A DNA stretch of 60,414 nucleotides, filler included. It is 7 parts of 7 records of this genome, joined end to end, with 100 filler letters (N's around TTAATTAATTAA, not from the genome) between each part and the next. Parts side by side here need not be neighbours in the genome. Positions count along the whole stretch, not along the records: positions 41,098 to 49,076 come from SRR31156797_13386; 6 more parts are not named here. One strand, given 5' to 3'. Of the stretch, positions 16,412-54,994 are shown one piece after another (within the stretch, counting starts at the first letter, position 1; every line of letters starts with the position of its first letter). The notes under the pieces were generated by a model that searched no databases, was not told the DNA's origin, and saw only the letters and a program-made list of their open reading frames with translations. The translations under genes were made by a program, and so were the position numbers.

Positions 16412-16511
16412 NNNNNNNNNNNNNNNNNNNNNNNNNNNNNNNNNNNNNNNNNNNNTTAATTAATTAANNNNNNNNNNNNNNNNNNNNNNNNNNNNNNNNN
16501 NNNNNNNNNNN
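16412..16511. other. Artificial contig spacer (N-TTAATTAATTAA-N)
   Basis: Identical 100-nt spacers also occur at 22998-23097, 28124-28223, 40998-41097, 49077-49176 and 54894-54993. Base composition and gene content change across each one. Confidence 0.99.
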
Positions 16512-22997: not shown

Positions 22998-23097
22998 NNN
23001 NNNNNNNNNNNNNNNNNNNNNNNNNNNNNNNNNNNNNNNNNTTAATTAATTAANNNNNNNNNNNNNNNNNNNNNNNNNNNNNNNNNNNNNNNNNNNN

Positions 23098-28123: not shown

Positions 28124-28224
28124 NNNNNNNNNNNNNNNNNNNNNNNNNNNNNNNNNNNNNNNNNNNNTTAATTAATTAANNNNNNNNNNNNNNNNNNNNN
28201 NNNNNNNNNNNNNNNNNNNNNNNG

Positions 28225-40997: not shown

Positions 40998-41098
40998 NNN
41001 NNNNNNNNNNNNNNNNNNNNNNNNNNNNNNNNNNNNNNNNNTTAATTAATTAANNNNNNNNNNNNNNNNNNNNNNNNNNNNNNNNNNNNNNNNNNNNA

Positions 41099-41750: not shown

Positions 41751-43568
41751 ATGATAAAAGAACTAATACAATTCACAGAAGCATTACCGCCAGAAACATT
41801 TAGCCGAAACCTACAACTAAAGGAAGGCCTATATATGTTTTTGGATGTACAGGAAGAAAATGGCGAAATTGTTTTAAAAAACATTAACGAGGCTGGAAAG
41901 TTATTAAAAGAAGATTTTGGTGTTTTTACAAGGAAATCGGAAATGACACCGTTTTTTGAAAAATGCCGGACAATTCAAATCAATTCTATTCCTGTTTCTC
42001 CTGCAAAAATATTTAATCCAAACAAAAAAGTTTATGGTGCTTCATGCTCACCATTTGTTCTCGCATTTGTAAAAAAGAATTTTGTGAAGTATGACAAATC
42101 GATATTAATAAAAGAACTAAGCGACCAATATTTCAAAAAAGCAGAAACATATTGCGAAGCAGATGAACAAAAAGAAAAATTCAGGCTTTTTCGAAGTTTT
42201 CTAACATCAAATCTTTATGAATTGATTACTACTCTCGATGAGTATAATACAGCCAAAGATTCTTTTACAATAAACATCTATTTAAAAGGTATATCAAATG
42301 AAGTTTATTTGGAAGCTCATGAGTTGTATTTAAAAGAAAACGTTTTCAACAAAGATGATTATAATGAAAAACTAGAAGATGAAATATTCGGCATTAGTGA
42401 TAGTCTGAGTGGATTTAACAATAAAAAGCGATTTTTAAAACACCAAACTTCTGCCTTAAAATATAACTATCGAATAAAAGGAGATGATGCTCAAAGTTTG
42501 TGGAAATTTTTTAAGCTTTATCAAAACAAACAACTCCCAAATCCATGTCCAATTTTTGTGGATTCAAATGAATTAAACCGCGGGCTGGTTAGTTTCCATC
42601 AAGACGGCAAAGTTGATTCCTATTCTGGTTTGATTAAAAAGCTGATTAAAGAATACAACAAAGAAGAACTTCAAAACTTTTATCTCATCTTTTTTCAGGG
42701 CACTAAAGGAAGCAGAATTGCAGATATTGATTTTGTTCCATTGTTTAGGTATAAAATAAATGATATTATTCTATTCGAGCCATTTCCCCTTGGTGGAAAA
42801 ATTGAATCCATTAAAATCAATAACATATTTCAACTTCAAGAAGTAATTTTTAACAAAATCTTCAACAATCAATTGGTAACCAAAACAAAAAATGGAGTTT
42901 GGGTGAAATTTTTCGATGAAATTGAGCCAAATTTAAAATATCAATTTACGAGTGCGATTTGCAACCTTATGATGCAATACCGAAAAGCAGTTTACGACTA
43001 CATATACAAAGCAAAGTATGAAAGCATAACATGTAAAATGTTCGACGTAATGATGAAAATCTCGATTTTGGAAGACATAAGAATTGACGAATTCAAAAAC
43101 GAACAGCATTCAAGAAGTTATCAAATAAAAGAAAAACTAAATATCTGGTTTAGTTTATATAACTATTTCAGTCAAAATAAAAACCGAGAAAATATGGCAA
43201 ACAAAACAGTAGAATTACAAGGTGAACTAAAATCGATTATTGAAAATGAGAATCTTCATATTGAAACTGATTCTCAATTTGCATTTGCATCCGGACAATT
43301 AATTTGGAAAATTTTAATCCAAAGCAAGTCTAGCTCCCGTTCCCACGCTTTATTAGAACCCTTTTTGCAAAAAACGAATGTTGAGCAATACAAACTGGCA
43401 ATTGCTAAAACGTTCGATATGTACAAACACGAATTCACACTTTACCCTAAAAAATATGAATTCGATAAAATAATGGGAGATGTAATGGGGTTCGTGCCCG
43501 ATGAGAAAAATATGAAAAACCTTTTAACCTATATTCTTGCAGGGTATTTTTCTGATTCAATAATATAA
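41751..43568 (+). CDS. cas8b: Type I-B large subunit Cas8b (Csh1-like)
   Basis: 605 aa between cas6 and cas7; C-terminal helical part QFAFASGQLI...ILAGYF is typical of Cas8b/Cas11. Confidence 0.75.
   Translation: MIKELIQFTEALPPETFSRNLQLKEGLYMFLDVQEENGEIVLKNINEAGKLLKEDFGVFTRKSEMTPFFEKCRTIQINSIPVSPAKIFNPNKKVYGASCSPFVLAFVKKNFVKYDKSILIKELSDQYFKKAETYCEADEQKEKFRLFRSFLTSNLYELITTLDEYNTAKDSFTINIYLKGISNEVYLEAHELYLKENVFNKDDYNEKLEDEIFGISDSLSGFNNKKRFLKHQTSALKYNYRIKGDDAQSLWKFFKLYQNKQLPNPCPIFVDSNELNRGLVSFHQDGKVDSYSGLIKKLIKEYNKEELQNFYLIFFQGTKGSRIADIDFVPLFRYKINDIILFEPFPLGGKIESIKINNIFQLQEVIFNKIFNNQLVTKTKNGVWVKFFDEIEPNLKYQFTSAICNLMMQYRKAVYDYIYKAKYESITCKMFDVMMKISILEDIRIDEFKNEQHSRSYQIKEKLNIWFSLYNYFSQNKNRENMANKTVELQGELKSIIENENLHIETDSQFAFASGQLIWKILIQSKSSSRSHALLEPFLQKTNVEQYKLAIAKTFDMYKHEFTLYPKKYEFDKIMGDVMGFVPDEKNMKNLLTYILAGYFSDSII
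43194..43568 (+). CDS. cas11: Putative internally translated small subunit Cas11 (124 aa, MANKTVELQ...)
   Basis: In-frame ATG preceded by an A-rich tract (AAAATAAAAACCGAGAAAAT) at the boundary of the C-terminal helical domain of Cas8b. Confidence 0.55.
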   Translation: MANKTVELQGELKSIIENENLHIETDSQFAFASGQLIWKILIQSKSSSRSHALLEPFLQKTNVEQYKLAIAKTFDMYKHEFTLYPKKYEFDKIMGDVMGFVPDEKNMKNLLTYILAGYFSDSII

Positions 43569-43575
43569 AAGATAT

Positions 43576-43657
43576 AAGTGCCATCGGCACGTTAGTATGG
43601 TAGAAAATAATAGTTAATAAAAACCCAAAGTCCCATAGGGACGAAACAATAAAAGAT
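43576..43657 (+). repeat. Hairpin doublet A (REP-like) in cas8b-cas7 intergenic region
   Basis: GTGCC-ATC-GGCAC + GTTAGTATGGTAG ... GTCCC-ATA-GGGAC + GAAACAATA, ending at the cas7 ATG. Confidence 0.75.
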
Positions 43658-44590
43658 ATGACATACAATAAAAGAATTTTTGGAGCCGCATTAGTTAAGG
43701 CAATCAACTCGAATTACAATGCCGATTTTAGCGGACAACCACGCACACTTCCTGACGGAACAGTTTATGCAACCGATAAAGCATTTAAATATGCTGTAAA
43801 AAACTATTTAAAGGATGTTTACACAGATGAACGCATTTTCTATTTCAAACGGTTTAACGAAGAGTTTGTCCCTTTTAGTTTAGATGATGCCTATGCAAAC
43901 ATGTTTCCTGAAAATAAGGATACAAAAGACAAAAAAGTTGTAGCAAAAGATATTTTGAGTTGTTTGGATATCCGTTTGTTCGGTGCAACATTCGCAAAAA
44001 AAGGGAAAAGCAACAACATTGCTATTTCGGTACATGGGCCAGTTCAAATTAACCACGGAGTAAATATTTGGAAAGAAAATAATATCTTCTCTGAACAAAT
44101 TATGTCTCCTTTCAGAAATCCCGATGAAAAAAGTGAAGAAAAGCAAGCCACAACACTTGGTCGCCAGTCGAAATTACAAGAGGGGCATTACCTGCATCAT
44201 TTCTCGGTTAATCCACAGAATTTAAAAGAGGTAGTTAAATTGGCAGGAGAAGGTGCCCAAAACATAACCACCTCCGACCTATCTAAACTAAAGGAAGCCA
44301 TGAGCCGTGGAGTTACCTGGTACGATTCGGCTTCGAAAGCTGGTTCGGAAAACGAAGTTTTGATTTGGATTGAACTGAAAGAAGGCTCAAAATTAGTTTT
44401 GCCAAATTTAACACAGCTTGTTGAAATGAAAGAAGAGAAAGTAGATGGGAAAGTGGTTCTTGATTGCGAGATGCTTAAAACTAAAATTGAAGAATTTAAT
44501 ACCGAAATTGATTCTGTTGAAATATTACGAAATAAGGCTTCTTTGAAACTCGATAATGAACCTAAAAATTCAAAAATAATGGACATCTAA
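43658..44590 (+). CDS. cas7: Type I-B Cas7 (Csh2-like)
   Basis: NSNYNADFSGQPR, ATDKAFKYAVKNY, DIRLFGATF, HGPVQI. Confidence 0.92.
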   Translation: MTYNKRIFGAALVKAINSNYNADFSGQPRTLPDGTVYATDKAFKYAVKNYLKDVYTDERIFYFKRFNEEFVPFSLDDAYANMFPENKDTKDKKVVAKDILSCLDIRLFGATFAKKGKSNNIAISVHGPVQINHGVNIWKENNIFSEQIMSPFRNPDEKSEEKQATTLGRQSKLQEGHYLHHFSVNPQNLKEVVKLAGEGAQNITTSDLSKLKEAMSRGVTWYDSASKAGSENEVLIWIELKEGSKLVLPNLTQLVEMKEEKVDGKVVLDCEMLKTKIEEFNTEIDSVEILRNKASLKLDNEPKNSKIMDI

Positions 44591-44592
44591 CC

Positions 44593-44673
44593 AAACCTCG
44601 TAGAGGTGGCAATATGATAGCATAAATATAGTCTCAAAACCAAAGTTCCGTAAGGACGATACAAAATACAGAA
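44593..44673 (+). repeat. Hairpin doublet B (REP-like) after cas7
   Basis: ACCTC-GTA-GAGGT + GGCAATATGATAGCA ... GTTCC-GTA-AGGAC + GATACAAAATA, ending at the tnpA ATG. Confidence 0.75.
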
Positions 44674-44898
44674 ATGGCAAATACCTACACTTAAATTAAT
44701 ATTCATGCCATATTTTCGGTGAAAGGAAGGAAAAATATTATTACCCGGAATTTCAGAAATAGGCTGCACGAGTACATAGCCGGAATAATCAACAACACAA
44801 ATAATTATTCGCTAGCAGTGTATGGTTACAAAGATCATGTTCATGCCTTTTTTGAGTTTCCTTGCTACCATACTTTCGTTCCTAACGGAACTAAATAA
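44674..44898 (+). pseudogene. tnpA: IS200/IS605-family HUH (Y1) transposase remnant
   Basis: MANTYT*INIHAIFSVKGRKNIITRNFRNRLHEYIAGIINNTNNYSLAVYGYKDHVHAFFEF...: stop at codon 7, HUH motif DHVH at 44833, truncated before the catalytic Tyr helix. Confidence 0.85.
44861..44893 (-). repeat. Inverted hairpin unit C closing the tnpA remnant
   Basis: Minus strand GTTCC-GTTA-GGAAC + GAAAGTATGGTAGCA, the same hairpin+TATGGTAG motif as doublets A and B. Confidence 0.75.
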
Positions 44899-44933
44899 AC
44901 GGATATTTTAATTACAGAAAAATTGCAGAAATT

Positions 44934-45740
44934 ATGACTAAATTAATTTCATTCGACATAAAAGCCGATTTTGGGATGTTAAAAAAGCCCGATACCAACG
45001 AACCAGTTTACCTTACTTTTAACATGCTGCACAAACCTGCGTTGCTTGGAATACTAGGGGCAATTGCTGGTTTAAAAGGTTTTCAGAAAAATGGTGAATT
45101 ACCTGAATATTACGAAAAACTAAAAGAGGTTCAGGTTGGGATAATGCCACTTCCTAAAGATGAATATTGTGATAAAAACTATCATGAAAATGGCAACTTT
45201 ACCAAAACCATTATCAAATACAATAACACAACAGGTTTAGCCAGCGAAGAAACCGGGGGGAACCTTATGGTTGCGGAACAAACACTTATTTCGCCCGCAT
45301 TTCGTTGCTTTGTATTATTGAATGAAGGAATTGAAGAACAACAAAAACTAATCAAAAACCTATTAACGTATCAGTCTGAATTCGTCCCCTATCTCGGAAA
45401 AAACGATTGCTCCCTTTGGTGGGAAAATGCAGATGTAGTCGAGTTTTCTGATTTTGTGCCTAGAGGTGTTTTTAAGATAAGTTCTTTATTTATAAAATCT
45501 GTTCCTGTGAAAGACAGCAAAGAAGAAATCAATTATTTCGATATTCTCTTTTCCGGTGAAGAAGGTAATACATTCAGCTTTTTTGAAAACTTACCCGTAG
45601 CTTATTTAGGTGCACCATTATTCCAATACGAATACCGAAGTTTTGCTTATACCGATTGGGATTTAAAGTTTACACCAGATTCAGGCTACAGGTTCATAAA
45701 ACTAACAACAGAAAATGAAGAGATTATCCAGCTTTTCTGA
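44934..45740 (+). CDS. cas5: Type I-B Cas5
   Basis: FDIKADFGMLKKP...TFNMLHKPALLGILGAIAGL and PYLGKN. Confidence 0.92.
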   Translation: MTKLISFDIKADFGMLKKPDTNEPVYLTFNMLHKPALLGILGAIAGLKGFQKNGELPEYYEKLKEVQVGIMPLPKDEYCDKNYHENGNFTKTIIKYNNTTGLASEETGGNLMVAEQTLISPAFRCFVLLNEGIEEQQKLIKNLLTYQSEFVPYLGKNDCSLWWENADVVEFSDFVPRGVFKISSLFIKSVPVKDSKEEINYFDILFSGEEGNTFSFFENLPVAYLGAPLFQYEYRSFAYTDWDLKFTPDSGYRFIKLTTENEEIIQLF

Positions 45741-48390: not shown

Positions 48391-48906
48391 ATGCCAACAA
48401 AAGGACTAAAAAAATATTTAAGTACACTAAGCAAAGAAGAACTGATAAAGCACATTCAAGAGCTGGATAAAAAATATAAATCGGTTCAGGAGTATCACCA
48501 TTTATTTTTAAACAACGATGTTGAAGCTATTGTTACGAAATACAAAAAGCAAATTGAGAATGAGTTTTACCCGCTTCGGGGTTTACCCAAAACGCGTTTG
48601 TCGGTAGCCCGTAAAGCCATTGCCGAAATAAAAAAACTTGGAGTTCCTTCAGAATCGTTAGCAGATTTAATGCTGTTTTATGTTGAAACAGGCGTACAAT
48701 TTACCAACGACTACGGCGACATAGATGAACCATTTTACAACAGTATGGAAAGCATGTTTGGCAAAGCATTAGAATTAATCCAAAAAGAAAGATTACTTGA
48801 GCAGTTTAAAGAAAGGGCTCTAAAAATTGTTGAAAGTTCATGCGATACCGGTTGGGGATTCCACGAAACACTTTATGATTTCTATTACCAATATTTTGAA
48901 TTATAA
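48391..48906 (+). CDS. Uncharacterised all-helical protein (DUF6155-like) inserted between cas3 and cas4
   Basis: LKKYLSTLSKEEL...EFYP...RLSVARKAI...LADLMLFYVETGVQFTNDYGDIDEPFY. The family assignment is from recall, not a search. Confidence 0.65.
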   Translation: MPTKGLKKYLSTLSKEELIKHIQELDKKYKSVQEYHHLFLNNDVEAIVTKYKKQIENEFYPLRGLPKTRLSVARKAIAEIKKLGVPSESLADLMLFYVETGVQFTNDYGDIDEPFYNSMESMFGKALELIQKERLLEQFKERALKIVESSCDTGWGFHETLYDFYYQYFEL

Positions 48907-49076: not shown

Positions 49077-49177
49077 NNNNNNNNNNNNNNNNNNNNNNNN
49101 NNNNNNNNNNNNNNNNNNNNTTAATTAATTAANNNNNNNNNNNNNNNNNNNNNNNNNNNNNNNNNNNNNNNNNNNNG

Positions 49178-54892: not shown

Positions 54893-54994
54893 CNNNNNNN
54901 NNNNNNNNNNNNNNNNNNNNNNNNNNNNNNNNNNNNNTTAATTAATTAANNNNNNNNNNNNNNNNNNNNNNNNNNNNNNNNNNNNNNNNNNNNC

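Follow-up and report, generated by a model that had tools for sequence, protein, structure and literature searches.

Two-hairpin modules in a Bacteroidota type I-B cas operon probably belong to a resident IS200-like nuclease of subclass 1.2

The DNA analysed here (60,414 nucleotides in its full length, referred to as the window) includes a type I-B cas operon in which short hairpins surround cas7 and the remnant of a nuclease gene, tnpA′, lies in the gap between cas7 and cas5. Taken as a whole, the reading that we regard as the probable one is that these hairpins are modules of a resident nuclease of TnpA_Y1 subclass 1.2, which would have occupied the cas7–cas5 gap for a long time and would now be dead in this operon. 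As part of the same reading, the canonical unit would consist of a module, tnpA and an inverted module, the module being presumably the normal flank of this low-copy nuclease.

Results

Judging from their alignment, the five hairpins amount to 2.5 copies of a single module that carries two hairpins and measures about 90 nt, namely module A in front of cas7, module B in front of tnpA′ and a shortened, inverted module C at the far end of tnpA′ (Table 1). The first-pass annotation of this DNA had reported five hairpin units with a common tail, a spacing of 37–39 nt and a distance of 15–16 nt to each ATG, and all of these were recovered at the same positions, the gap from hairpin to hairpin being 39 nt in doublet A and 37 nt in doublet B. 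That the units might be five independent repeats was rejected: doublets A and B can be aligned end to end over about 90 nt, and C corresponds to the outer half of an inverted copy. Each module has two 5-bp hairpins: the outer one is followed by a conserved tail G-N4-TATGGTAG and an AT-rich spacer, the inner one by an A-rich end. The inner hairpin of module C has gone with a deletion described below; the related loci L022, L006, L001 and L087 have complete inverted modules, whose inner hairpin is GCTCC/GGAGC.

The tail by itself is unremarkable, since 8 matches to the 8-mer TATGRTAG in the window compare with an expectation of 3.5, and as many as 8 arise in 4 of 100 shuffles. Only in three of its copies in the window, those of modules A, B and C, is it accompanied at the appropriate spacing by a GC-rich hairpin of 5 bp. 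When R1, a covariance model for the entire module, was run over the 60 kb with filters off, it returned exactly three matches (81.6, 75.1 and 23.7 bits), and the runner-up scored 13.3 bits (E 1.4). The genome-wide scan by covariance model that had been suggested earlier likewise found these three matches only in the window and at least 2–14 modules per genome in relatives, the genome-wide counts being derived from relatives' genomes only. A search of the whole cas contig against Rfam gave no match at E up to 1.

Pairing within the stems is well maintained. Among 10 independently aligned modules, 94% of the cells are paired, 7 of the 10 pairs have changed on both sides and none of 500 shuffles reaches the covariation score; for 40 distinct sequences fitted to the model the corresponding values are 97.9% and 10 of 10 pairs, in an alignment that, being fitted, leans toward structure. 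The covariation noted in the first-pass annotation lies mostly between the module positions A, B and C, whose divergence is ancient. Among orthologs at a given position, compensatory changes are few (for example GCCCC/GGGGC in B2 of L087), and L007 and L009 show several mismatches that are not compensated. As RNA, module A folds with a z-score of −2.72, and none of 200 shuffles is equally stable.

The gene between modules B and C is the dead remnant of an IS200-like Y1/HUH nuclease. Homology to intact relatives stops near 44856, after the HUH motif, which is kept as HVH, and covers the N-terminal half only. The remnant matches the Pfam profile PF01797 (Y1_Tnp) with E 5.1e-10 over positions 5–61 of 121, and reaches 32.6 bits, under the cut-off of 55, with NCBIfam NF033573. 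A deletion of about 316 bp at 44856 has removed the Tyr motif. In runs X2, X4 and X6 there are contigs, about 90% identical to the window, that have about 316 additional letters exactly at this position and are full-length there, and therefore the deletion is real and recent. The dN/dS ratio of tnpA′ against its L022 counterpart is still 0.075. At the level of sequence, these comparisons establish that tnpA′ died recently in the window, through a nonsense codon and the deletion of about 316 bp.

The family of the nuclease could be determined from the intact ortholog in L022 (L022:11042–11500), the closest relative. This protein passes the NCBIfam model of IS200/IS605 TnpA, NF033573 (69.4 bits against a cut-off of 55), matches PF01797 over the full profile (E 1.7e-25) and can be aligned with ISDra2 TnpA structures, with the HUH and Tyr residues in place. 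The earlier view that the protein was of the REP (repetitive extragenic palindrome)/RAYT type had to be abandoned: the L022 protein fails the RAYT model NCBIfam NF047646 (20.4 bits against a cut-off of 80), and its Tyr motif is YIMEQEKHH, of the form Y---Q--HH, instead of the class 2 motif Y---NP. The Y---Q--HH motif is found in 78 of 83 relatives, including those of L022, L006, L001 and L087; three of the remainder are variants and two are truncated. Subclass 1.2 was defined by Quentin, Siguier, Chandler and Fichant (2018, BMC Genomics 19:475; PMC6006769), and the relevant passages of that paper give as its features the Y---Q--HH motif, low copy number, occurrence in Bacteroidetes, no behaviour as an insertion sequence (IS) and, generally, no terminal structures. 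On its motif and model matches, the nuclease is a member of this subclass; for tnpA′ of the window, in which the part with the Tyr motif is deleted, membership rests on orthology.

Copy number is low here too. The genomes behind L022, L006 and L001 (G001, G002 and G003) each contain one cas-embedded copy, 100, 81 and 73% identical to the L022 protein, and the next paralogs are at most 51% identical (51, 44 and 49%, respectively). No near-identical second copy of the cas-embedded tnpA was found in G001–G005. A match at E 1e-30 or better was obtained in 123 of the 301 genomes searched across the order, mostly 1–5 per genome, with 12 in one.

A tnpA gene lies between cas7 and cas5 in at least seven type I-B operons, those of the window, L022, L006, L001, L087, L182 and L189. 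The proposal that a hairpin-recognising Y1/HUH system had colonised the Cascade operon is thus borne out by the match of tnpA′ to Y1_Tnp and by intact orthologs at the same site in the other six, and the predicted intact homologs flanked by the same units do exist: in L022, L006, L001 and the metagenome locus L087 the ortholog has 153 aa, with module B on its 5′ side and a complete inverted module on its 3′ side. Module B of the window can be aligned with the modules that abut the intact tnpA of L022, L001 and L087. The full order module, cas7, module, tnpA, inverted module, cas5 is seen in L022, L006, L087, L182 and L189. L001 has tnpA and no module before cas7, while L189 has an additional module in the cas5–cas3 gap, before cas3. 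In L182 and L189, whose TnpA proteins are 58 and 52% identical to that of L022, the layout is the same and the stems are different ones, also in the module before cas7.

Orthologs of module A occur in L022, L006, L007, L009 and L087, and those included in alignment A1 are 72–86% identical. The module is confined to loci that have tnpA (the window, L022, L006, L087, L182 and L189) or plausibly had it formerly (L009 and L007, both with stem defects). L009, in which AbiE genes replace tnpA, retains a module A with a mismatch in each stem and an altered tail, and the best TnpA match in its genome is 33–35% identical. The cas-embedded tnpA genes have dN/dS ratios of 0.04–0.10 wherever synonymous divergence (dS) is computable, which means strong purifying selection. 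The proportion of synonymous differences (pS), near saturation, is similar for tnpA and cas7 of the same pairs (0.42 and 0.37 for L006–L087; 0.48 and 0.50 for the window and L022). These comparisons demonstrate, as far as sequences can, that the unit entered the cas7–cas5 gap of a Bacteroidota type I-B lineage long ago and has been inherited with the cas genes, under purifying selection in the relatives.

The same gap holds other cargo. Among 32 assessable I-B loci, 12 have a gene between cas7 and cas5 and 20 have none. The cargo comprises tnpA in three loci, a YhcG/DUF1016 nuclease in two (L002, L005), AbiEi/AbiEii in five (L004, L009, L010, L023 and L020, the last inferred from L004), a DUF559 gene in one (L013) and a GIY-YIG gene in one (L028).

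That the modules go with tnpA can be seen in 80 metagenome tnpA loci, found with the L022 protein, in which 356,854 bases were searched with R1. A match was obtained in 67 of the 80; the module abuts the start codon in 50, an inverted module lies just downstream in 41, and both are present in 29. Although 195,529 of the bases searched were farther out, 156 of 157 matches were less than 1 kb from tnpA, and the single distant one is the module before cas7 in L087. The same type of module also flanks tnpA outside any cas context.

In the reading that we prefer, the nuclease would recognise the hairpins as folded single-stranded DNA (ssDNA) and might seed extra modules near its own gene. Within a tight operon, only intergenic gaps would tolerate modules, so that they would land before cas7 (or before cas3, as in L189); since the modules stay near tnpA and only such gaps accept them, cas7 would come to look framed. 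They are probably transcribed through within the cas mRNA, because the sense strand has no T-run, and the A-rich end of module A would serve as the sequence ahead of the cas7 start. Of the leader that cas7 and tnpA had been proposed to share, this much stands: the module before cas7 is homologous to the leader module of tnpA and, in sequence terms, provides the bases immediately 5′ of the cas7 start. Most likely, the resident is a selfish or semi-domesticated passenger that a horizontally mobile cas operon tolerates, comparable to the other small nuclease and toxin–antitoxin genes of the slot.

Several observations weigh against this. Module A is 72–86% identical at saturated synonymous divergence, L009 without tnpA included, and this would fit a host function too (the figure is inflated by AT-richness). 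The layout with a module before cas7 persists at 52–58% TnpA identity and is steadier than would be required of a repeat that is purely parasitic. Folding more stable than that of shuffles is confined to module A, the z-scores being −0.58 for module B and, for the region of module C, +0.20 (plus strand) and −0.59 (minus strand). Passive tolerance alone leaves the enrichment of TnpA in cas loci, described below, unexplained. The modules number at least 2–14 per genome, as counted among the 150 first-look candidates scored in each. Finally, it is from position alone that we infer local seeding by TnpA.

Some of these points would be accommodated if the modules were exapted RNA elements. Flanking cas7, they would protect or delimit its segment of the mRNA, or provide it with a good leader, and so raise Cas7 relative to Cas8 and Cas5; the nuclease would then be dispensable. 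Higher Cas7 output would be useful because Cascade needs several Cas7 per complex, and REP hairpins are able to stabilise upstream mRNA segments. This explanation would be consistent with the conservation of module A, in L009 too, with its fold beating all 200 shuffles, with perfect stems in both A hairpins and B1 of the window despite the dead tnpA, with read-through expected from the lack of a sense-strand T-run and with an A-rich module end that lies 15–19 nt away from the ATG in the case of cas7 as well as tnpA. However, 28 of 32 regions upstream of cas7 in related I-B operons have no module, and L001 keeps tnpA without module A. The hairpins have just 5 bp, those of modules B and C are no stabler than shuffles, and stems are mismatched in L009 and L007. 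The death of tnpA is recent, so that intact hairpins in the window say little, and the same type of module flanks tnpA where there are no cas genes. We therefore hold an RNA function of this kind to be unlikely.

A different role for the nuclease had also been put forward, namely that it excises or swaps cas7 as a cassette bounded by the hairpin modules. Modules A and C are indeed inverted with respect to each other and bracket cas7 and tnpA, and the ranking of whole-gene identities is discordant between cas7 and its neighbours, the cas7 of the window being closest to L007, L002 and L001 (90, 86 and 85%) and its cas5 and cas3 closest to L022 (85 and 84%). The breakpoints behind this discordance do not coincide with the modules. 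In a sliding comparison they fall inside cas7 (at about aa 45, 165 and 255) and in the N-terminal part of cas8, none at a module, and the difference in rank is explained by these intragenic patches. Between aa 45 and 165 of Cas7 (window 43790–44150), L022 alone is divergent and L001 is 97–100% identical to the window; the last 50 aa of Cas7 are common to the window and L022 only; and aa 45–190 of Cas8b (window 41880–42320) are 20–37% identical to L022 and, over part of the segment, 77–87% identical to L007, L009 and L004. This mosaic suggests recombination within cas genes, perhaps tied to reading of the protospacer-adjacent motif or to anti-CRISPR pressure. Gene order is unchanged across seven loci, and the order module, cas7, module, tnpA is stable though synonymous sites are saturated. 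Only 2 of 17 solo modules elsewhere in the relatives' genomes precede an open reading frame (ORF). No excision junction of cas7 was present in the contigs of run X1, the one full match, contigs being blind to rare forms. Shuffling of cas7 as a cassette is accordingly very improbable.

In contrast to our preferred reading of the nuclease as a passenger, its distribution might point to a function in CRISPR-Cas (short palindromic repeats that are clustered and regularly interspaced, with the proteins associated with them). Subclass 1.2 relatives lie in CRISPR and defence loci far more often than the genome share of such loci predicts, in counts that are not phylogenetically independent. Genes of the cas type stand beside tnpA in 10 of the 57 metagenome loci of 2.5 kb or more, and restriction-modification, Abi or TIR genes in 8 further loci of the same 57; L114, L154 and L155, with the same ORF layout as L113 and L153, were left unscanned. 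Of the 30 best loci from these 301 genomes of the order, 9 are in cas operons (1.5-kb flanks, limited query set). The TnpA tree contains a clade of 19 rows (support 100/98) in which 9 of the 13 with context are linked to cas genes. The contexts are varied: between cas7 and cas5 of type I-B, between cas5 and cas3 of Cst-type I-B (L089, L119, L172, L188), beside cas12a (L095, L175, L176) and before cas4 in divergent type I loci (L088, L124, L162).

Nuclease and hairpins might accordingly work with CRISPR-Cas, by processing ssDNA for spacer uptake, by regulating the operon or by moving or repairing cas modules, their presence being selected. Besides the counts, the cas-rich clade and the variety of contexts, such a function would account for the strong purifying selection and for a divergence that tracks that of the cas genes. 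Nevertheless, many members of the subclass sit amid housekeeping genes, among them the remaining four contextual rows of the cas-rich clade itself (L093, L096, L100 and L101). Most related I-B operons have no tnpA, the operon of the window has lost it, and the cas7–cas5 slot also receives unrelated, selfish-looking cargo. The eight loci beside restriction-modification, Abi or TIR genes fit a general bias toward defence islands, and the counts lack phylogenetic independence. On balance, an accessory role of this sort seems to us rather improbable. Much the same doubt attaches to the more specific proposal that the subclass 1.2 clade and its modules form a real, optional accessory of Bacteroidota CRISPR-Cas loci, selected through action on ssDNA or on the transcript of the cas genes, be it in the uptake of spacers, in regulating the operon or in Cas7 dosage; if true, it would explain both the long co-inheritance and the repeated occurrence in loci of the I-B, Cst-type I-B, divergent type I and Cas12a kinds.

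The operon of L089, which holds a subclass 1.2 tnpA between cas5 and cas3, also contains a second, different Y1 gene between cas3 and cas4 (L089:6925–7536), which is RAYT-like (54 bits against the NF047646 cut-off of 80).

Two other identities of the hairpins were rejected. They do not resemble terminators, since the sense strand has no T-run after them and a terminator scan flags only A1 and A2 on the minus strand. On that strand T-rich runs come after both hairpins of module A (43578–43590 and 43630–43642), which the scan takes to be terminator-like; by analogy with the bidirectional terminator of the IS200 left end, these hairpins might stop antisense transcription. Nor are they degenerate CRISPR repeats or Cas6 sites, as the array repeat of L022 shares merely an 8-nt word with the unit tail, and this tail is kept in modules outside cas loci too. 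The word, ACCATACT, is common to the plus strand at unit C (44866–44873) and to the L022 array repeat (array from about 18950). As the tail is conserved also in non-cas modules, the sharing is probably due to chance. At window 44598–44624, the contigs of runs X2 and X6 that are about 90% identical have 85–86 letters in place of 24–25 (the B1 stem and tail), and these relatives may carry an extra unit at B1.

Discussion

The protein described here agrees with subclass 1.2, as characterised in the relevant passages of PMC6006769, in its IS200-like HUH core, Y---Q--HH motif, conserved short C-terminal extension, low copy number, occurrence in Bacteroidetes and lack of IS behaviour. It differs in its ends, since these passages report generally no terminal structures, whereas we find inverted two-hairpin modules, upstream in 50 and downstream in 41 of the 80 loci. 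In the same passages this trait is descriptive and not a protein-based criterion of the subclass. The main text of the paper contains no mention of CRISPR.

The arrangement also recalls REPtrons, in which RAYT/TnpA_REP genes of E. coli and Pseudomonas are associated with hairpins of REPs or bacterial interspersed mosaic elements (BIMEs), as described in the corresponding parts of PMC5581495. Common features are a single-copy Y1 gene, inverted flanking hairpins with extra hairpins nearby, vertical inheritance and purifying selection, as well as the recurrence of the flanking inverted repeats elsewhere in the genome (at least 2–14 matches per genome here). In contrast with REPtrons, the protein fails the RAYT model, and the motif is Y---Q--HH here and class 2 Y---NP there. 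The hairpins have no GT[AG]G at their 5′ foot; instead, GTAG ends the tail 3′ of the outer hairpin, after G-N4. Furthermore, the repeat is a two-hairpin module of about 90 nt, and its matches amount to at least 2–14 per genome, not to hundreds.

The left end of IS200, as far as it is treated in the parts of Ellis et al. (2015, PMC4513863) relevant here, is similarly organised, with two inverted repeats before tnpA, an outer hairpin and then a leader hairpin just before the start codon. Unlike the present unit, however, IS200 occurs in multiple copies and lacks, at its right end, an inverted copy of the left end, whereas in our case the module recurs there in inverted form. According to the same parts, the outer hairpin of IS200 is a bidirectional terminator and the inner one hides the Shine-Dalgarno sequence, whereas here there is neither a sense-strand T-run nor a Shine-Dalgarno sequence. 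The TnpA model of IS200/IS605 (subclass 1.1) is passed by the L022 ortholog, but near-identical multiple copies and end hairpins on the same strand, which belong to that subclass, were not found.

Within the accessible text of the literature consulted, which included PMC6006769, PMC5581495, PMC12669027 and PMC11656645 and had subscription journals and supplements outside its scope, no description of Y1 nucleases in cas operons was found. In the passage of PMC5581495 that touches on the matter, Bertels et al. go no further than the speculation that a role ‘in a CRISPR-like way’ might be open to RAYTs.

Subclass 1.2 nucleases were defined in 2018 without a known DNA partner or role. What is new is, first, a candidate cognate structure for them, inverted two-hairpin modules that apparently stay within less than 1 kb of the gene, second, the age and constraint of one subclass 1.2 lineage and its co-inheritance with a cas operon, and, third, the excess of the family in CRISPR and other defence loci over what their genome share predicts. 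This provides a testable system for the role of non-mobile IS200-like nucleases and for the interplay between hairpin nucleases and CRISPR-Cas. For annotation, it means that such hairpins in cas operons are to be taken as the nuclease's own repeats, not as degenerate CRISPR repeats or terminators. As a decayed example, the window itself contributes little more.

Genomic setting of the operon

The window is a pseudo-molecule of seven contigs joined by six linkers (each N44, a 12-base stop-codon spacer and N44) at 16412–16511, 22998–23097, 28124–28223, 40998–41097, 49077–49176 and 54894–54993. Genes separated by a linker need not be neighbours, and the 7,979-base contig at 41098–49076 is alone contiguous with the hairpin units. 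It is occupied by a type I-B operon in the order cas6 (cut), cas8b, cas7, a 225-base remnant, cas5, cas3, a DUF6155 gene and cas4 (cut). Cas6, Cas7, Cas3 and Cas4 were recognised by Pfam and Cas5b by NCBIfam, and the gene order is that of type I-B. For cas8b, neither Pfam nor NCBIfam gave a match. No array, cas1 or cas2 was found on this contig, whose ends cut cas6 and cas4 and may hide a CRISPR array; L022 carries one.

Table 1. Positions of the hairpin modules and neighbouring features, counted along the window
Feature	Position	Strand	Details
cas8b	41751..43568	+	ORF of 605 aa; upstream neighbour; 39–73% identical to the gene at the same position in the compared orthologous I-B loci
Module A, solo two-hairpin module	43570..43660	+	R1 81.6 bits; end coincides with the cas7 ATG
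Hairpin A1	43578–43590	+	Stems GTGCC/GGCAC; tail TATGGTAG at 43596–43603
Hairpin A2	43630–43642	+	Stems GTCCC/GGGAC; ends 15 nt 5′ of the cas7 ATG (43658)
cas7	43658..44590	+	310 aa; Pfam Cas_Cas7 E 2.5e-39; NCBIfam Cas7/Csh2 E 1.8e-16, under the model cut-off
cas7–cas5 gap	44591–44933
Module B, left-end module and tnpA leader	44587..44676	+	R1 75.1 bits
Hairpin B1	44595–44607	+	Stems ACCTC/GAGGT; tail TATGATAG at 44613–44620
Hairpin B2, imperfect	44645–44657	+	Stems GTTCC/AGGAC; ends 16 nt 5′ of the tnpA′ ATG (44674)
tnpA′, dead IS200-like Y1/HUH nuclease remnant	44674..44856	+	ATG at 44674; TAA at codon 7 (44692–44694)
Module C, shortened inverted right-end module	44842..44899	-	R1 23.7 bits
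Hairpin C1, outer, inverted	44878–44891	-	Stems GTTCC/GGAAC; tail at 44865–44872, minus strand
cas5	44934..45740	+	268 aa; downstream neighbour; NCBIfam type I-B Cas5b 99 bits against cut-off 97

The DUF6155 gene between cas3 and cas4 (window 48391–48906) is also present in L022 (73% identical) and L087 (70%), and seems to be a further passenger that operons of this family may or may not carry.

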